The translations under genes and the position numbers were made by a program. From Prochlorothrix sp. (GTDB taxonomy: Bacteria; Cyanobacteriota; Cyanobacteriia; Prochlorotrichales; Prochlorotrichaceae): 24,000 nt of DNA. The stretch spans positions 1 to 24,000 of the forward strand of contig JAYKJG010000348.1 in NCBI GenBank assembly GCA_035286285.1. The letters are read 5' to 3'. A model generated the notes under the pieces. It was not told the origin of the DNA, searched no databases, and worked only from the letters and a program-made list of their open reading frames with translations. Below are positions 3,210-19,463 of the stretch, one piece after another; position 1 is the first letter of the stretch, and each line of letters begins with the position of its first letter.

Positions 3210-3283
3210 TCGGAGCGGCGGGATTTGAACCCACGACCCCCACTACCCCAAAGTGGTGCGCTACCAAGCTGCGCTACGCCCCG
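3210..3283 (-). tRNA. tRNA-Pro (anticodon GGG)
   Basis: The reverse complement reads CGGGGCGTAGCGCAGCTTGGTAGCGCACCACTTTGGGGTAGTGGGGGTCGTGGGTTCAAATCCCGCCGCTCCGA. The 7-bp acceptor stem CGGGGCG/CGCTCCG has one G-U pair. The D-arm is GCGCAGCTTGGTAGCGC. The anticodon stem is CCACT/AGTGG with loop TTGGGGT, giving anticodon GGG. The T-arm is GTGGGTTCAAATCCCGC. The discriminator is A and CCA is not encoded. Confidence 0.93.
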
Positions 3284-10259: not shown

Positions 10260-10766
10260 TTGGCTTTACTGGAGAAGCCTGTGAATACCTTTGACTTTCT
10301 ACCTAAATTGCCAGAAGAACAGTGTCAGGCACTGAAGGATCAAGCCGCTATGATTCGGCGGCTATACTTGAAAAAACCGATCGGTCAGAGTAATGTTGCG
10401 ATCGGGGAGGTCTATTTAGCCAATGGCCTGTGCTTTGGGGCAGGGGCTACCTCTAAGCGTCAAAGTCCAATTCCGAAACCTCTACCCCGATCGCAAGGGG
10501 GACAATTTGAGCCAATCTGGGTTTCCTACAACGAGCGGATCATGGATACAGATGCTGAGTTGAAGGTCTTGGACGCAATTGCTACAACCTTGGCAACGCG
10601 CTACGATCGAAGCGTCTCCGGTTCTTTGTATCTCTACACAGAACTCAAACCTTGCCCCAGTTGTCGTGGGGTTATAGAGCAGTTTCAGGAAAGATTTCCT
10701 AATATCTGCCTTTTTATAGCCTGGGATATCACTTACCCTCCTATCACTTTGAGCAATTCCCTATGA
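10260..10766 (+). CDS. Small stand-alone deaminase-fold protein (polymorphic-toxin-type nucleic-acid/nucleotide deaminase-like)
   Basis: 168-aa ORF. D98-A99-E100 (10551-10559) and P131-C132-P133-S134-C135 (10650-10664) lie 32 residues apart. This matches the [HCD]AE ... PCxxC zinc and catalytic signature of the cytidine-deaminase-like fold. The following CRGVIEQFQERFPNI resembles toxin deaminase tails. No secretion or trafficking domain is present. The likely start is GTG 10281, preceded by GGAGAAG (10271-10277). Confidence 0.6.
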   Translation: MALLEKPVNTFDFLPKLPEEQCQALKDQAAMIRRLYLKKPIGQSNVAIGEVYLANGLCFGAGATSKRQSPIPKPLPRSQGGQFEPIWVSYNERIMDTDAELKVLDAIATTLATRYDRSVSGSLYLYTELKPCPSCRGVIEQFQERFPNICLFIAWDITYPPITLSNSL

Positions 10767-11671
10767 GTCACCCTGCCCCTCTTCAGCACCATACCTTCGC
10801 TGCTACCGACCTCCCCCAGTCCATCGTCTCCATCCTCAATCAGGTCAGTGAGTACCGCTATGGCGAATTGTATGAAGAGGGAGGAGACCAGAGTTTGTCC
10901 CTAAAGACTGCAATTAATTACGTTTTTGACGCTTTAGAGTCATCTAGGCCGCAAACCTATCCTCAGTTAAGCCAAGCTCGTTATATCTGGATGGCACTGT
11001 TGCTAAGTATTGCGGTCTGGCCCGGTTTGGAGTTTTACCAGCCCCAAAACCCCTGTCCCCAGGAAACCGTTAACCGTCTAGAGCTTTGGTTATATCTCTG
11101 GCGTTCTCTAAAACGTTCTCAGGATTGGGATGAGTTAGACACATTACTGGGACAAGAGCCAGATATCAGTCCTTGGGAAAATTGGCCAAAATACCCAGTC
11201 AAAGACTCCTGTCCTAGCCTACAGCTTGTTACCGATTGTATTTGGGCCTATGAAAATGCCCAAAGAACGCTAATACGAGCAGAAGCGCGTTCAGCCTGTT
11301 TCGATCTGGTGGAAAGCTGCCTAGAAGACTATGCCATCATGGCAGGCTCAGCCCAGCGTCGAGACCTGTTTGACTGGTGGCTCTGGGCTGTGATTCCCGC
11401 AACGTTGACTTTTTCTAAACCAAAATGGTGGTTTGAGCCACAGCACAACGCAAAAGCGGTATTTCTCTCCTTCTCTCCTAGCCTAGAGCAGTCTCTTAAA
11501 GCCCTTAAAGCGCTGATCTACTTCGAGTCAGCAGAAGTCTACAACCCGCCCCATCCTCCCCAGTCCCAGAGCTTGAACAAATCGAACAGATCGACCTTAA
11601 TCCTCCATAAACCTCAAATTTCAACTTCATTCACCCGTAGGCCCGACTGGACCCGCCAAAGACCGGCATAA
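10763..11671 (+). CDS. Hypothetical Trp-rich helical protein; candidate cognate immunity or antitoxin partner of the deaminase-like protein
   Basis: 302-aa ORF whose ATG (10763) overlaps the upstream TGA (ATGA). I recognise no motif. It is rich in W and acidic residues. Its last ~19 codons overlap the 3' end of the convergent ABC gene, so the true C-terminus is uncertain. Confidence 0.6.
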
Positions 11672-13398: not shown

Positions 13399-13544
13399 GG
13401 TTTAGGGATTTGCTAGGGAAATTACGGATATGCTTATCCTAGCTTGCTTGGTCGTTGCTGCTATTGTGGGCAGATTGCTCTGCGAGGGAGGTTAAGGAGA
13501 GGTGGGATCCCAGGGGCCGACGATCGCCTCACCTGTTTCGTTTC

Positions 13545-13640
13545 GTCATGCTCCTCACCGACTCCCCTAGCATCCGCGATGTCATCGCCTTTCCCCTCCT
13601 CCGCCCCGAAAAAGCTACGATTGCTGATGGTAATGTCTAG
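13545..13640 (+). pseudogene. lysS: Orphan 3'-terminal fragment of lysyl-tRNA synthetase (last ~30 codons only)
   Basis: It translates to [51 protein letters not shown] is the conserved class-II LysRS C-terminus (compare E. coli ...[22 protein letters not shown]). No synthetase body lies upstream, where sequence runs into the divergent ABC gene promoter. A GGGGG-AGCTG-CCCCC hairpin followed by T-rich sequence sits at 13686-13716. Confidence 0.7.
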
Positions 13641-13755
13641 CCCGCTGAGGTGAATGCCGAATCGTGATCGTTCTCCGCTATAATTGGGGGAGCTGCCCCC
13701 TTAACCTTATTCTTTCAGCCTTTAATTGTCCTACTCACACCTACTAGAGGCTCCT

Positions 13756-14877
13756 ATGGGACTTCAAGAAGAACTAGAGCAAAAACGCCAAGAAATTCGG
13801 ACAGACTCTTACTCTATGTCCGTCGGAGAATTGATCAGTCTTTACCAAGGAAAGGAAATTGAGATTCATCCCCAGTTTCAACGGTTCTTCCGATGGTCTA
13901 CAACCCAGAAAACCCGTTTTATTGAGTCTCTCTTGATTGGTTTGCCGATTCCTCAGATTTTTGTCTCTCAGAGGAAGGATGGAGTGTGGGATGTTGTGGA
14001 TGGCCTACAGCGACTGTCTACGATTTATGAGTTTGTTGGGATTCTCTGCGATGAAACAGGTGAACGGAAAGCACCCTTGATCTTGGAGCAAGGGGAAACA
14101 CTACCATCCCTGAAGGGTAAAAAGTGGGAGGATGGCTATGATCCTGATAACTCCCTAACAAAGGCTGAGCGCCTCTTGATCAAGCGGGCCAAGCTGGAGG
14201 TTGCTATCCTAGTCCAAGGGAGCGACCCGAATGCACAGTATGAATTATTTCAGCGTCTCAATACAGGCGGATCGATTGCGACGGACCAAGAGATTCGCAA
14301 CTGTCTTCTCATTATGGCGAATCCAGATACCTATGACTATATCAAGGATCTCAGTAGCAATGAGCACTTCAAAGACTGCATTGCTTTATCTGACAAGGCA
14401 AGCGCTGAACAGTATGATTTAGAGCTTGTTTTAAGATTCCTGCTCTTTCGGACCATTCCAGAGGAGAAGCTCAAGAAGATTCCATATCCCGACATCAGCG
14501 ACTACCTCACCTATTGTATCCGTCAAGAGATCATTAAGGATCCCGATGACTATGAACGGGATAAGGAAGCCTTCACCACAACCTTTGCCTTGCTAGCGGG
14601 AAGCCTTGGCGATCGCAGCTTCCGGAAGTACTATCCTGCGCAAGATCAGTTCAAAGGAGGCTTTCTCGTCTCTGCATTTGAAGCGATCGCCTTGGGTATT
14701 GGTTACAACTACGATCGGCTCTGTACCCAATCCCTTGACCTAGAGGCAAAGGTAAAAGACCTCTGGCATAATCCGTGCTTCACCAATGCCTTAGGTGGAT
14801 CCTCCAAAGGTAGCATCAGCACTCGCAAGCGATTACAAACGATCTTACCCGTAGGGCGGGAACACTTTAAGGTATGA
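13756..14877 (+). CDS. DUF262 domain protein (ParB-like/GmrSD N-terminal NTPase-type domain) without a DUF1524 nuclease domain
   Basis: Motifs are IHPQFQRFFRWSTTQKTRFIESLLIGLPIPQIFV and WDVVDGLQRLSTIYEF, the DUF262 QR...W / DGxQR signature. No His-Me/HNH motif is visible in the C-terminal ~230 aa. I prefer the start at ATG 13756 with tagagg upstream; the track start is 13726. Confidence 0.85.
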   Translation: MGLQEELEQKRQEIRTDSYSMSVGELISLYQGKEIEIHPQFQRFFRWSTTQKTRFIESLLIGLPIPQIFVSQRKDGVWDVVDGLQRLSTIYEFVGILCDETGERKAPLILEQGETLPSLKGKKWEDGYDPDNSLTKAERLLIKRAKLEVAILVQGSDPNAQYELFQRLNTGGSIATDQEIRNCLLIMANPDTYDYIKDLSSNEHFKDCIALSDKASAEQYDLELVLRFLLFRTIPEEKLKKIPYPDISDYLTYCIRQEIIKDPDDYERDKEAFTTTFALLAGSLGDRSFRKYYPAQDQFKGGFLVSAFEAIALGIGYNYDRLCTQSLDLEAKVKDLWHNPCFTNALGGSSKGSISTRKRLQTILPVGREHFKV

Positions 14878-15524
14878 GCAAGGTTCGGACTCTGGAGGAT
14901 CTTAGCAACCGCTTGAATGACGATCTGACTTGGCGTAAGCGGGAACTATCTAAACTAAAGGCAATGATTGAAACTGAGCGGTCTGATATGGAGCGCAGTC
15001 GTGTTTTGTTACGGAGTGGCTTGACTCTGTTATATGCCCATTGGGAAGGCTTTATTAAAGAGGCCGGGTCACTATACTTGGAGTATGTGGCAATGCAACG
15101 GCTCAACTACGATCAACTGACTAGTAATTTTCTGGCACTGGCTTTTAAGAAACGTCTAGCGGAGGTGAATGAGACCCATAAAGCAACTATCTATACCACA
15201 AGCTTAGACTTTATCCGGTTTCAACTGTCTCAACGTAGCCAGATACCCTACAAAGAAGGTATAAGAACTGGATCCAACCTTTCTTCAGAGGTACTCAAGG
15301 AGATTATTTGTATCCTGGGATTAGAGTATGACTTCTATGAAACGAAGCAGAAACTGATTGACACAAAACTGCTTGCAAAGCGGAATCAGATTGCCCATGG
15401 TGAATACTTAGACCTAGATGCTGAGGACTATGCAGCACTACAGAAGCAAATTATCACCATGATCGATCACTTTAAAGCTCAAATTGAAAATAATGCTTCT
15501 CAAGAAAAGTATAAATCGCCCTGA
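14874..15524 (+). CDS. HEPN-type predicted RNase (resembles the MAE_28990/MAE_18760 HEPN-like nuclease family)
   Basis: 216-aa all-helical ORF with the Rx4H motif in AKRNQIAHGEY near the C-terminus. Its ATG overlaps the DUF262 stop (ggtATGAgc, 14874-14877). Confidence 0.8.
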   Translation: MSKVRTLEDLSNRLNDDLTWRKRELSKLKAMIETERSDMERSRVLLRSGLTLLYAHWEGFIKEAGSLYLEYVAMQRLNYDQLTSNFLALAFKKRLAEVNETHKATIYTTSLDFIRFQLSQRSQIPYKEGIRTGSNLSSEVLKEIICILGLEYDFYETKQKLIDTKLLAKRNQIAHGEYLDLDAEDYAALQKQIITMIDHFKAQIENNASQEKYKSP

Positions 15525-15873
15525 TCCCATAACTCTAATATGAACTGCTTGTAATACTGAAGTAGCTCAGACTAAATAAAGGGAGGTATGGGCTACAGCA
15601 GAATAATAGTTTCAGCGACCTTAAGTGCCCATTACTTTCCCCGATCTACTTATGCTTACATCAACACCCGATGGCATGACTGCTTCTTACTCCTTGCTCA
15701 CCCAAACCCAGTAGCATATTTTTCCCTAGGCGCTCCAACGCCTTCTGTCTCCCTGGGTACTCCAGGGGCCTTGCACTGGACACAGAGCCTCTGAAAGACG
15801 TTCCTGCACTGAGCCGGGGAACGAGAGAACAGACAGTACTGACAGCTAGCATCTCCCCCAGCTTAACTTTGGC

Positions 15874-16668
15874 TTAACTGGACTCCAGGTGAGGGTCTGT
15901 TTGGAGGATCGTCAGGATCTCAGTTTCAAATGCTTGTGCCTGGGAACAGCATTGCTTAAGATTTTGCCAATTTTCGGTGACTTTTGGTGCATAAACCCGA
16001 TAATTTCGGACACTTTTCTTGATTCGTTGTTGTTTTGGCAACTGCGCTAGCCGTTTCTCAACCTTGGGATCGCATTCACCCCCTTGCAAACAGGGGTGAC
16101 TTGGCGGTAGGACCGCAGTTGCTAACCAAGTACCCGAAGATTGGGCAGGTAAGCAGAAACAAGTTTGGTTTCCTGGTATTGCCTGTCCTAGCCAACTCCG
16201 AATGACTTCTAGAAGTGAGGTAACCGTTGCGGACACTGGGGGACATGGCTGCTGACAAGGCAGGCACTTCCAAGCGTTGTCTTGAGCCATCTTTGAGAAA
16301 TAAGGTTCATCCTTGGGATCGTAGTCTTGATACTCAAAGCCTCCCACATCTACATCTACGTGAATAATCAATAAGTCAAAACAAGCCAGGGTTGGATCAA
16401 AATCGAGAGAGCCTTGATGTCGCTTTTGAGTCTCGTGGCACCATTTGGCGACCCCGCCCCAACCTGTCCCTAGCCGGGGCTGAGTGGCCTCTGGTTGCAG
16501 TAAGGTCAGGACAAAGGGATTGGGTAAAATTGCCTTGAGAGCAGCCTGAATCACTTCTAAATCCCCTGGTCCTTCAGCAACTAAAGCAATGCGTAGAGTT
16601 CTATTGAAGAGCTTGGGGAGGATGGTAGACTGTTTGCTGGGCAGCGTTGGATCTGTGGCCTCAGACAT
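15874..16668 (-). CDS. TOPRIM-like protein (DUF4276/DUF4435/RloB-like) with a Cys-rich insert
   Basis: Near the N-terminus is RIALVAEGPGDLEV (an EG..D/E motif). About 70 aa later comes LLIIHVDVDVGG (an acidic DxD cluster), as in OLD-type TOPRIM partners of ABC ATPases. The insert reads WKCLPCQQPCPP...CFCLP...HPCLQGGECDP. I prefer ATG 16668, which overlaps the ATPase stop by 8 nt (ATGTCTGA). The track start 16683 is a TTG. Confidence 0.65.
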   Translation of the reverse strand: MSEATDPTLPSKQSTILPKLFNRTLRIALVAEGPGDLEVIQAALKAILPNPFVLTLLQPEATQPRLGTGWGGVAKWCHETQKRHQGSLDFDPTLACFDLLIIHVDVDVGGFEYQDYDPKDEPYFSKMAQDNAWKCLPCQQPCPPVSATVTSLLEVIRSWLGQAIPGNQTCFCLPAQSSGTWLATAVLPPSHPCLQGGECDPKVEKRLAQLPKQQRIKKSVRNYRVYAPKVTENWQNLKQCCSQAQAFETEILTILQTDPHLESS

Positions 16669-17890
16669 GGGGGACGGCTCCAAGGTGGCCCATTAGCCAC
16701 AGGCGCGAAAGGGGATACTGTTGGTTGAGATCCAGCAGTTGGGCGTTGAGGGTAAGGCGTTGGATGACAGTTTGGCCGTTACTATTACGATCGACGGCAA
16801 ACAGACGCACCTCTGGATCGCCTAGGTCCAGACCATCAAGGGCAGCCGGGTTATGAACCGTAAAGAGAATCTGGCGATCGGGGCTACTATGAACTAACCA
16901 ACTGGGCAAACGGGTGATTAGTGCCCTCAGCAGGCGGGGATTGAGGGCTTGATCGAGATTGTCGATCGCTAAGGTTTGGGGGGCTGGGGGCAATAGGCAC
17001 AGTAGCGCGGTAAACAGAATATACAGTGCCCCTTCACTGGCATCGTAGGCAGTCAATTCATTGCGGCTTTTCTGCATAAACCGATCGCTAAATTTCAAAA
17101 TTTCTTTGGTACGGGGAACCTTCGGGGAGAGGAGTTTTGCCCCATACCGAATCGTCTCGATGTCGGCTACCCAGTCAATTAGCTCTAGAATTTGCTCAAA
17201 AATGACTTCTGACTGGTTTTCAGAAGCCATTGCAAGGTCTTTTGAGTCACTGTCGGCTTTTGCCTCAAGATATTGCCGAAGACTTGCAAACCCCTCCGCC
17301 AGTTGACCGCCATTGAGTCCTACGGGAGTGCGGGACTGCTGATCAGGAACAATCCCCCGTAGGGTTGGTGTGTTAGGGCAGTAAATGGCAAAGTCTCGGA
17401 GTTGCTGTATGAGTTGGTTTGCAGGGCTGTCGCGTGCCAAATTGACCAGTTGTAGGGCCGCGAGTCCTGCTTGGGGATTGAGATTTTTCTGACTTCGCAC
17501 ACCACTGGCAATAATCTCAGTGGTGCCATCATGGAGCACTTCTGTTTTATAGGACCAGGCTGGATCAGGGGAATCAATGGGATTGAGGAGGGAAACCCGG
17601 TAAAAGGCTTGGCTCTCGCTAGTGGCCTCGATCGTGATGTGGGGAGGAGTGCGATCGGACCGAAAGGAGCTTTTATAGAGCCGTGGCAAGCTAGCCCGAA
17701 CCCCGCGCCGGAGCAAACTTTCATCGTCTACAACGCCATTGGCAGCGGCTCCCAGAACCCCAAGGGCTTCTAAGACATTACTTTTGCCGACTCCATTGGC
17801 TCCAATCAAACAGTTCAGCCGACCCAGTTCCAACTTGGCCTGGTAAATAGACTTGAAGCCCTGAATTTTAACCTGGCGAATCATGCCCAT
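16661..17890 (-). CDS. ABC/OLD-type AAA ATPase (AAA_21/AAA_15-like, COG-type 'predicted ATPase')
   Basis: Motifs are IQGFKSI...LNCLIGANGVGKSNVLEAL (Walker A), SEGALYILFTALL (signature-like), LAIDNLDQALNP (Walker B/D-loop), ILFTVHNP (H-loop) and the C-terminal LSRLWLMGHLGAVP. Confidence 0.88.
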   Translation of the reverse strand: MGMIRQVKIQGFKSIYQAKLELGRLNCLIGANGVGKSNVLEALGVLGAAANGVVDDESLLRRGVRASLPRLYKSSFRSDRTPPHITIEATSESQAFYRVSLLNPIDSPDPAWSYKTEVLHDGTTEIIASGVRSQKNLNPQAGLAALQLVNLARDSPANQLIQQLRDFAIYCPNTPTLRGIVPDQQSRTPVGLNGGQLAEGFASLRQYLEAKADSDSKDLAMASENQSEVIFEQILELIDWVADIETIRYGAKLLSPKVPRTKEILKFSDRFMQKSRNELTAYDASEGALYILFTALLCLLPPAPQTLAIDNLDQALNPRLLRALITRLPSWLVHSSPDRQILFTVHNPAALDGLDLGDPEVRLFAVDRNSNGQTVIQRLTLNAQLLDLNQQYPLSRLWLMGHLGAVPHV

Positions 17891-17895
17891 AGTCG

Positions 17896-17939
17896 CTGTG
17901 GTGGGTCGTTGAAGACTACTGTGGTGGGTTATCGAAGAC
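17896..17939. promoter_or_regulatory. Two 21-bp direct repeats (23-bp period) immediately upstream of the ATPase start codon
   Basis: The copies are ctgtggtgggtcgttgaagac (17896-17916) and ctgtggtgggttatcgaagac (17919-17939), identical at 17 of 21 positions. The first copy ends 5 nt from the start codon at 17890. Function is unknown. Confidence 0.35.
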
Positions 17940-18101
17940 CCTTTGCATCATACCCTACTTGAATCTTGTTTAAGGGACAGGCTTTTGGGAGAGTATAGGG
18001 CAAGGCTATGGACTACCCTAAAGCAGGGGGTGCGGGTTTCCCGCCTACGATGCTTGGACCTCGGTCTAATCTCTTCCAGTTTGGCAGCATAATAACCGTT
18101 T

Positions 18102-19463
18102 ATGAGCGACTCCCGTCTTGATCCTGTAACTGCAACGCATTCCCTGCTGGCGCAAACTCAGCAGCATTTGCAAGCGCTGTTGCAACGCTATCAAGCCCAA
18201 ACTCAAGCCCAGCCCCGATCGGCCCATACCCCACCTAACCCAACCCTGGGAGCCAGTTACCAAGGCCAGATCGATCGCCTCAGTACCCTAGTGCATAAAC
18301 TAGAGCAGCGGATTGTGACGATCGCCGCCTTTGGCTTGGTCAGTCGGGGCAAGTCGGCGGTGCTGAATGGGTTGCTGGGGCAGAAGTTGTTGGAGACCGG
18401 GCCGATTAATGGGGTGACGCGGTGGCCCCAGACGGTGCGCTGGAGTGGGCCACAGTTGGGGGGATTTCAGGTGGATTTAGTTGATACACCGGGTTTAGAT
18501 GAAATTGAGGGGCAAAGCCGGACAGCTATGGCGAAAACCGTGGCTCAACAGACGGATTTGATTTTATTTATTGTGGCGGGGGATGTGACCCGCACTGAGT
18601 ATGAGGCCATCCAAACCCTCCTCCAGTTCCAAAAGCCGATTCTGTTGGTGTTTAACAAGACAGATCTCTATCCCGTGACCGATCGGGCTGAAATTTTAGC
18701 AAAATTGCGTCAATTTTTGGTTAACCAAGGGGAAACTGCTGAATCTCTAACGTTATCCACCGCCGATGTTCTCCCTGTTGCCGCAGAGCCTGCCCCGCTC
18801 CAGGTTCGCATTGAAGATGCAACGGGAACCGTAACCCAAACCTGGGAAACCCCAGCGGCCCAAATGGGGGAGTTGGCCGATCGGCTCAGCCAAATCCTCC
18901 TCCAGGAAGGAGAACAACTGCTCGCCCTCAATGCTTTGGTCCAGGCCCGCAGTGCGGCGGAAACCTTAGCGCAGGTCCAAATTCAGACCCAAAATGAGCA
19001 AGCAGAGCAGGATTTGAGTCGGGTTGTCTGGACTAAGGCGGCGGCGATCGCCCTCTGTCCGGTGGGGCTGGGGGATTTGGCCGTGGGAGCGGTGCTGGAT
19101 TTGGTGGCGGTGCGGACCTTGGCCCAGCGCTATGGGTTGCCGATGACGCGGCATCGGGTGGGGCGACTGTGGCAGCGCTGGTTGGCCAGTGGGGCGATTT
19201 TACTGCTGGGAGAGGGGTTGAGCCAGGGATTTTTGGGCTTGAGCTTGGGGGAGAGCGGTCTAGCGGCCTGGGGTGGGGCGGGGCTAGTGCAGGGGCTGGC
19301 AGCGGCCTATGGAGGCTATCAGGTGGGCCGATCGGCCCAGGTCTATTTACAGGAGGGTTGTACCTGGGGGCCGGAGGGTGCAAGCTGGCTCATTGAGGGG
19401 ATTTTGTGCCAAGCTACGCCCCAGGGGGTCATTGCCCGGTTACGGCAGTTGGGGGCTGGCTAA
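18102..19463 (+). CDS. GTP-binding protein with a C-terminal Gly/Ala-rich hydrophobic (DUF697-like) region
   Basis: G1 is GLVSRGKSAVLNGLLG, G3 is DLVDTPG and G4 is VFNKTD. The C-terminal ~130 aa are hydrophobic (AAAIALCPVGLGDLAVGAVLDLVAV...). Confidence 0.85.
   Translation: MSDSRLDPVTATHSLLAQTQQHLQALLQRYQAQTQAQPRSAHTPPNPTLGASYQGQIDRLSTLVHKLEQRIVTIAAFGLVSRGKSAVLNGLLGQKLLETGPINGVTRWPQTVRWSGPQLGGFQVDLVDTPGLDEIEGQSRTAMAKTVAQQTDLILFIVAGDVTRTEYEAIQTLLQFQKPILLVFNKTDLYPVTDRAEILAKLRQFLVNQGETAESLTLSTADVLPVAAEPAPLQVRIEDATGTVTQTWETPAAQMGELADRLSQILLQEGEQLLALNALVQARSAAETLAQVQIQTQNEQAEQDLSRVVWTKAAAIALCPVGLGDLAVGAVLDLVAVRTLAQRYGLPMTRHRVGRLWQRWLASGAILLLGEGLSQGFLGLSLGESGLAAWGGAGLVQGLAAAYGGYQVGRSAQVYLQEGCTWGPEGASWLIEGILCQATPQGVIARLRQLGAG

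Follow-up and report, generated by a model that had tools for sequence, protein, structure and literature searches.

A probable defence-gene hotspot in the lysS–GTPase spacer of Prochlorothrix, occupied by two unrelated two-gene modules

What are the four genes that lie between an ABC exporter gene and a GTPase gene in Prochlorothrix sp., and did they arrive as one unit? We addressed this question in a stretch of 24,000 nucleotides (nt) of contig JAYKJG010000348.1, referred to as the window, in which the interval under study spans 13399–18101. A first-pass annotation had described this interval as an A/T-rich accessory islet. The reading that we favour, with a probability of about 0.72, is that the spacer between lysS and the GTPase gene is a hotspot for defence genes, where two unrelated two-gene modules were each gained and lost independently. 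Gene content, motifs, family matches, the independence of the two pairs and the structures of the alleles were observed directly.

The interval contains four long intact open reading frames (ORFs), named A to D, that form two convergent pairs: A–B on the + strand (pair 1) and D–C on the - strand (pair 2). As the first-pass annotation had stated, stop and start codons overlap within each pair. The stop of A and the start of B share 4 nt (ATGA), an overlap that was found again in P. hollandica and Anabaena. Genes D and C overlap by 8 nt (ATGTCTGA), and this overlap is present in five genomes, namely the window and those with the Oxynema, Aeromonas, Thiolinea and Enterobacter plasmid homologues. 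In addition, C homologues begin with 'MSE/MSD' in every D–C locus examined. Because both the 8-nt overlap and this protein start recur, the ATG at 16668 is the true start of C. The overlaps suggest that translation is coupled within each pair. The features of the interval are as follows.

13444..15811, no strand: segment not in allele Y, covering the lysS remnant, pair 1 and the GTPase 5′ remnant (blastn against L023)
13545..13640, + strand: lysS 3′ remnant, last ~31 codons and stop (NCBIfam lysS, tblastn, blastn)
13684..13704, + strand: putative terminator-like hairpin followed by a T-run, 3′ of the lysS remnant (consensus scan only)
13726, + strand: alternative TTG start of gene A
13756..14877, + strand: gene A, DUF262 (GmrSD_N), ParB-like, 373 amino acids (aa) (Pfam, PADLOC, motifs)
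14874..15524, + strand: gene B, HEPN RNase-type, 216 aa (Pfam, alignment of 30 homologues)
15559..18137, no strand: pair 2 cassette, the segment not in allele X (blastn against L001 and L004)
15559..15650, no strand: 92-nt segment, not in allele X, which is without pair 2 (comparison with L001 and L004)
15651..15718, + strand: orphan GTPase 5′ end, start codon and ~22 codons, with an in-frame TAG (compared with L001 and L004)
15874..16668, - strand: gene C, PDC-M31B, 264 aa, TOPRIM-like putative nuclease (PADLOC, AlphaFold2, conservation)
16661..17890, - strand: gene D, PDC-M31A, 409 aa, ABC-type (AAA_15/AAA_21) ATPase (PADLOC, Pfam, alignment)
17896..17939, no strand: two 21-nt direct repeats just 5′ of the D start codon
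18102..18301, + strand: imported, diverged 5′ end of the GTPase gene (count of differences from L001, alignment)

PADLOC and Pfam searches with the four proteins gave defence-type matches for A and D, a Pfam HEPN domain for B and PDC-M31B for C, and NCBIfam returned no match to a housekeeping family. The proposed order of a DUF262 gene followed by a HEPN gene on the + strand was confirmed by Pfam (GmrSD_N at 4e-23 for A and HEPN_MAE_28990 at 3e-42 for B). For the - strand, where an ATPase followed by a TOPRIM-like protein had been proposed, the ATPase was recovered (AAA_21/AAA_15), while the TOPRIM assignment stood in part, with the motifs present but no significant profile or fold match.

Three allelic states of this locus were found among metagenome contigs of the species.

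Allele W (window and L024; in part L002, L003 and L028–L030): ABC gene, lysS remnant, A, B, GTPase 5′ remnant, C, D, GTPase gene
Allele X (L001, L004): B, 35 nt, intact GTPase gene; window 15559–18137 missing
Allele Y (L023): ABC gene, joined from 13443 to 15812, then C, D, GTPase gene; window 13444–15811 missing

Allele X was recovered from two independent sources, with 99.1–99.6% identity to the window on either side; the flanks of allele Y are 99.7–99.9% identical (blastn). The junction of allele Y carries a 3-nt microhomology (AGC), which is unlikely to be a de Bruijn-graph artefact, and was not found in JGI metagenome contigs. As one allele contains pair 1 only and another contains pair 2 only, the pairs do not belong to a single four-gene system but are independent accessory cassettes with different histories. 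The islet is thus not one unit, since pair 1 occurs alone in L001 and L004 and pair 2 occurs alone in L023. That the stretch is accessory and consists of defence-type genes is borne out by the presence/absence alleles and by an empty site in a sister species. Presence/absence variation is better proof of accessory status than composition.

The empty site also shows where the insertions took place. The GTPase protein of the window has an identical counterpart in a Prochlorothrix sp. metagenome-assembled genome. Six contigs of a sister Prochlorothrix species, whose GTPase is 77% identical, carry MoaE(-), lysS(+), 265 nt and the GTPase gene(+), with no trace of A–D at this site (tblastn). As lysS is followed by 265 nt and the GTPase gene without A–D, the ancestral site is the lysS–GTPase spacer. 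This comparison was made through GTPase protein homologues and their contigs; a scan of genome contigs found no GTPase relatives. The orphan lysS 3′ fragment reported earlier at the left edge is real, as 13545–13640 encodes the last ~31 residues of LysRS. It matches NCBIfam lysS positions 465–488 of 488 and, over 74 nt, shares 86% identity with the end of lysS in the sister species (tblastn, blastn), and the homology to lysS ends 5′ of 13545. The comparison of flanks suggested in the first-pass annotation therefore did reveal an empty site, but between lysS and the GTPase gene. The ABC exporter gene is not the original left flank: it abuts lysS, truncated at ~13545, and lysS is the ancestral neighbour. 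No integrase or transposase genes were found in 13399–18101 (Pfam, PADLOC), and the sole tRNA gene of the window is located at 3210–3283. The cassettes have no terminal inverted repeats, the only flank repeat being the 68-nt diverged copy of the GTPase 5′ end.

Next, we consider pair 1. Protein A contains a GmrSD_N/DUF262 domain, conserved HPQFQR and DGLQR motifs and no DUF1524/HNH nuclease domain (Pfam). Its best PADLOC match is NsnA (5.5e-62, model positions 40–375 of 385), followed by PD-T4-2_A (4.2e-32, residues 32–355 against model positions 39–338 of 363). Protein B matches both HEPN_MAE_28990 and HEPN_RiboL-PSP (PF18735, 4.6e-40), and its Rx4H motif (R170-x4-H175) is invariant across 30 homologues. 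In P. hollandica, pair 1 is located directly 3′ of an intact lysS with a ~120-nt spacer and equal gene lengths (A 373 aa), and A and B are 76% and 68% identical to the window proteins. Core proteins across the genus show comparable divergence (LysRS 84%, GTPase 60–77% identity). As the divergence of A and B is similar to that of LysRS and the GTPase, pair 1 is best read as an old resident of the site downstream of lysS that was lost by the sister lineage. Conservation at the same position thus applies to pair 1, which is present beside lysS in P. hollandica, but not to the four-gene set, which is absent from the sister species. We also sought a shared insertion junction, and the spacer 3′ of lysS could not be aligned with that of P. 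hollandica. Elsewhere, Anabaena PCC 7108 carries pair 1 at another genomic location, and B homologues are found on plasmids of six genera, with a DUF262 gene adjacent in nine of ten plasmid records. One of these, a 5.7-kb mobilisable Col plasmid, carries pair 1 with the same PADLOC pattern as the window pair. The operon link between ParB genes and RiboL-PSP/MAE_28990 HEPN genes was described in 2013 (PMC3710099). Among tested systems, pair 1 is closest to PD-T4-2 of E. coli ECOR65 (Vassallo et al. 2022), which protects its native strain from T4 (PMC9519451; PMC10952713).

Gene A also varies within the species. The window and L002 differ at 42 positions over 3.8 kb, 28 of which are located in 13773–14572 (the N-terminal half of A) and none in B. 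Many of the differences in A change the amino acid, and at several positions L002 has the P. hollandica residue. Either a recombination tract or diversifying selection in the sensor domain could account for this pattern.

The guanine plus cytosine (G+C) content of 13399–18101 is 0.490, compared with 0.549 in the left flank and 0.568 in the right flank, so that 'A/T-rich' is accurate relative to the flanks but not in an absolute sense. The five hand counts of G+C given earlier were right, with one off by one base. Pair 1 has a G+C content of 0.456 and the pair 2 cassette 0.512, and the G+C content at third codon positions (GC3) of A, B, C and D is 0.51, 0.45, 0.45 and 0.53, respectively, versus 0.60 ± 0.05 in the other genes of the window. 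The composition shift is real but modest, being strong in pair 1 and weak in pair 2. Pair 1 is also poorer in G+C than its host in P. hollandica (0.43 vs 0.57) and in Anabaena PCC 7108 (0.34 vs 0.40), whereas the D–C pair is above its host in some cases and below in others. Low G+C content is a trait of the pair 1 family in every host examined and therefore not a sign of recent arrival. This means that the 'compositionally foreign patch' of the first-pass annotation is indeed lower in G+C, but that this says nothing about when pair 1 arrived.

Pair 2 has a different affiliation. Protein D matches PADLOC PDC-M31A over its full length (2.7e-186, residues 3–409 against model positions 1–395 of 395), and C, which adjoins D on the same strand, matches PDC-M31B (9.5e-97). 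The PDC set consists of 145 candidates without tests that were proposed by Payne et al. through 'guilt by embedding', as BREX, DISARM or type I restriction-modification loci contain homologues of them (bioRxiv 10.1101/2024.01.29.577857). Our literature search found no mention of PDC-M31. Protein D has Pfam AAA_21 and AAA_15 domains, a Walker A motif (GANGVGKS) and a Walker B motif at residues 309–318 (IDNLDQALNP). The latter is the same in all five homologues compared (61–74% identity), which range from cyanobacteria to an Enterobacter plasmid, and has Asn at the position of the usual catalytic Glu of ABC ATPases. This substitution suggests that D may be an ATP-bound switch rather than a fast hydrolase.

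The assignment of C is less direct. Protein C has no significant match in Pfam, NCBIfam, PDB sequences or Foldseek, and no Pfam or PADLOC match except PDC-M31B, even at E up to 10; profiles of its family found nothing among PDB sequences. The family itself is large (432 clusters at 90% identity, 823 representatives at 50%) and includes members from cyanobacteria, gamma- and beta-proteobacteria and Chlorobi at 55–64% identity. The AlphaFold2 model of C (predicted local distance difference test score, pLDDT, 85; predicted template modelling score, pTM, 0.84) has an alternating strand–helix core whose order is consistent with TOPRIM. The TOPRIM signature consists of a Glu that follows strand 1 and a DxD that follows strand 3. 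In the model, E32 is located at the end of strand 1 (25–30) and D105 at the end of strand 3 (99–103); among 86 representatives at 27–56% identity, both residues are invariant, and at least 90% also retain D107. Weak matches of these 86 relatives point in the same direction, with nine to DUF4276 (best E 0.0026), two to OLD-like_TOPRIM and two to Toprim, and no further family was matched more than once. One member of the family is named DUF4276 by UniRef, and in a Foldseek search against BFVD an RloB-like protein ranked second (E 0.02, probability 0.77). Both DUF4276, a homologue of Mad4, and RloB have been placed in the TOPRIM superfamily (PMC12065111). The designation of C as 'TOPRIM-like' is thus well supported by the motifs and by converging weak signals, although it is not statistically established.

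Two further observations concern the proteins and the leader of pair 2. Cysteines C77, C138, C142, C172, C199 and C241 of C are conserved in the close family, C77 and C172 being nearly invariant across 86 diverse members, and these residues may form a structural metal site. The direct repeats 5′ of D (CTGTGGTGGGTCGTTGAAGAC and CTGTGGTGGGTTATCGAAGAC) are 86% identical with 23-nt spacing. They may be an operator or leader element, and were not found 5′ of the D homologues in three other PDC-M31 loci.

The neighbourhoods of D–C in other genomes fit a defence role. In Aeromonas molluscorum, D–C is located inside a type I restriction-modification/GmrSD island with an integrase alongside, and on an Enterobacter conjugative plasmid it adjoins SAVED, E1 and JAB genes. 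In the Aeromonas locus (L013/L014, 3345–6726), a GmrSD_N+DUF7834 gene and a full GmrSD gene are located directly 5′ of D–C. This second case of DUF262 genes beside PDC-M31 is possibly a coincidence.

How pair 2 reached its present position can be examined by comparing alleles W and X. The 68 nt at 15651–15718 share ~91% identity with the beginning of the intact GTPase gene of allele X (L001, L004), whereas the functional GTPase gene at 18102 has a 5′ end that is only ~60% identical to the resident type. Accordingly, W and X (L001) have 62 differences over 4.4 kb, 42 of which are within 18102–18301. Because the diverged GTPase 5′ end is located beside the cassette, the source would be a diverged relative in which the cassette was already located 5′ of the orthologous GTPase gene. 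The cassette would have joined by one crossover within the GTPase gene and, at the opposite end, by illegitimate or site-specific joining, an integration that would also have duplicated the GTPase 5′ end. The 92-nt segment at 15559–15650 has no copies in the loci compared and no notable fold.

Could the single-pair alleles be derived from W by deletion? For allele X, this was considered and rejected, as it lacks the 92-nt segment and has a resident-type GTPase 5′ end for ~200 nt. A repeat-mediated deletion of W cannot give a resident GTPase 5′ end, so X did not arise in this way. Allele Y, by contrast with X, can be a simple deletion derivative of W. The order X-like to W to Y thus appears the most economical. 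In this scenario, pair 1 would already have been 3′ of lysS in the genus ancestor. Pair 2 would have come later by recombination within the GTPase 5′ end, bringing along a substitute 5′ end, and pair 1 would then have been removed in some strains by a microhomology deletion.

The anti-phage function of the two modules, their triggers and substrates are, like the direction of these events, what we infer from the observations above. In pair 1, A would be a DUF262/ParB-like NTPase and DNA sensor that recognises phage DNA or a modified form of it, by analogy with GmrSD, BrxU and SspE. It would then license B to cut RNA (tRNA, rRNA or mRNA), and this cutting may stop translation and result in abortive infection. 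In pair 2, by analogy with PARIS and with Mad3/Mad4 of MADS, D may hold C inactive in a complex and, when a phage trigger is sensed, release or activate the C nuclease.

Several points weigh against a hotspot of functional defence modules. HEC-01, a tested ATPase-plus-TOPRIM pair, gave E. coli no protection. An integrase, a transposase and terminal repeats are all missing from both cassettes. At E up to 10, no PADLOC model, not even PD-T4-2_B, matches protein B, and the same is true of its Enterobacter plasmid homologue. Protein C has no significant TOPRIM profile or structure match, the best fold pointer being the RloB-like protein at E = 0.02. Finally, allele Y rests on one contig.

Among the other explanations, the one that survives best is that one or both pairs are selfish toxin–antitoxin addiction modules with no meaningful anti-phage benefit. 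HEPN proteins are common toxins of toxin–antitoxin systems (PMC3710099), both pairs are carried on plasmids, their genes overlap tightly and they have no known phenotype. We nevertheless consider this unlikely. Strong addiction is countered by the clean natural loss of both pairs, as seen in alleles X and Y and at the empty sister site. Relatives of the pairs are found in restriction-modification and CBASS-type neighbourhoods, and PD-T4-2 protects its native host from T4 (PMC9519451).

It is less probable still that A–D form a single four-component system similar to Menshen, with A as sensor, D as transducer and C and B as effectors. Protein A does match NsnA best, D matches NsnB (4e-15), some NsnC effectors carry DUF4276 TOPRIM domains (PMC12065111) and D–C adjoins DUF262 genes in Aeromonas. 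However, A–B occurs without D–C in L001 and L004 and alone in P. hollandica, Anabaena and plasmids, while D–C occurs without A–B in L023 and without a nearby DUF262 gene in Oxynema, Thiolinea and the Enterobacter plasmid. Moreover, D has no DUF3696 tail, is on the opposite strand and comes from a separate arrival. A single four-gene system is thus ruled out by the single-pair alleles. The idea that A–D are core housekeeping genes and that the composition shift is noise can be all but dismissed, for although pair 1 is syntenic 3′ of lysS in two Prochlorothrix species with identities in the core-gene range and the G+C content of pair 2 (0.51) is near the window mean, strains of one species differ in whether they carry the genes, the site is cleanly empty in the sister species, no NCBIfam housekeeping family was matched and GC3 is 1–3 standard deviations below that of other genes.

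The hotspot reading, with two independent defence modules, therefore remains the one that we prefer. It makes this locus a clean natural case of defence-gene turnover at one site, with three allelic states in one species and an empty site in its sister. The locus has no mobility genes, and with one insertion the host gene next to it gained a replacement 5′ end. Furthermore, the locus shows that low G+C content in a defence module need not be evidence of recent transfer but can be an enduring trait of its family. It also places a PDC-M31 candidate and an unannotated PD-T4-2-like clade (ParB-like protein plus MAE_28990-type HEPN protein) in a bloom-forming freshwater phototroph. The analysis adds the series of alleles, the true site of insertion and the recognition of low G+C content as a family trait.

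A bolder proposal is that PDC-M31 is a genuine stand-alone anti-phage system. It would consist of an ATPase with a Glu-less Walker B motif and a cysteine-rich TOPRIM protein outside the curated families, with a recent spread across cyanobacteria, proteobacteria and conjugative plasmids and recombinase-free movement that replaces the 5′ end of a neighbouring gene. We put this forward tentatively, at somewhat less than even odds. If it is true, the natural alleles with both pairs, pair 1 only and pair 2 only are ready-made knock-in/knock-out strains.

Outside the interval, 10260–11671 (+ strand) encodes a toxin deaminase (168 aa; Pfam family BURPS668_1122, 5e-13) that has a 4-nt overlap with a 302-aa ORF without a family match. 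These are probably a toxin/immunity pair. The region has a G+C content of 0.48–0.50, under the window mean, and it shares 58 nt at its 3′ end with the 3′ end of the ABC gene.

How do the two pairs compare with known systems? The first-pass annotation had recognised no exact match to a characterised system, and this stands, as pair 1 fails the PD-T4-2_B model and pair 2 is a PADLOC candidate. Menshen resembles the locus in that A has the NsnA architecture, with NsnA as its best match, and that an ABC ATPase and a possible TOPRIM effector are nearby. Unlike Menshen, however, A is followed by a HEPN gene instead of NsnB, and D is on the other strand in what is a separate insertion of D–C. D is without the DUF3696 tail, and its match to NsnB reaches only 4e-15. 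Moreover, there is no NsnC with an inactive N-terminal PIN domain plus an effector domain: HEPN is the only domain of B, and the alignment of C with PDC-M31B begins at the N-terminus of C.

Pair 2 is similar to MADS, the methylation-associated defence system, in combining an AAA-family ATPase (Mad3) with a DUF4276-type TOPRIM protein (Mad4), both of which are required for MADS defence. It differs in that D scores 43 bits against an NCBIfam antiphage_MADS3 cut-off of 420, and in that the window pair stands alone, without a methyltransferase or other mad genes. PARIS likewise has a separate ABC-type AAA_15/21 ATPase (AriA) and a small TOPRIM partner (AriB) in one operon. Unlike in PARIS, C has no DUF4435/AriB match and is cysteine-rich, AriA models match D only in part (2.9e-19 at residues 267–352 and 1.8e-12 at residues 3–45), and the Walker B motif of D has Asn for the catalytic Glu. 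By analogy, the logic of pair 2 is likely the same as that of PARIS, in which the ATPase restrains the nuclease until a trigger is received.

The closest likenesses are to PDC-M31 and PD-T4-2. Pair 2 agrees with PDC-M31 in its full-length model matches, shared strand and family-typical 8-nt overlap. The differences are small and not structural, with a 20-residue N-terminal insert in the window C and a 12-residue insert in D. PDC-M31 is a candidate only, and membership says nothing about function. Pair 1 and PD-T4-2 both consist of two genes, a DUF262/GmrSD_N protein without DUF1524 and a PF18735 HEPN protein. They differ in that the score of A on NsnA is twice that on PD-T4-2_A, in that B fails PD-T4-2_B and in that the host of pair 1 is cyanobacterial. 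The locus is thus a real but fairly ordinary defence hotspot, and both of its modules are of known kinds: a PD-T4-2-like pair of a ParB-type and a HEPN protein, and PDC-M31, which belongs to the ATPase-plus-TOPRIM class.

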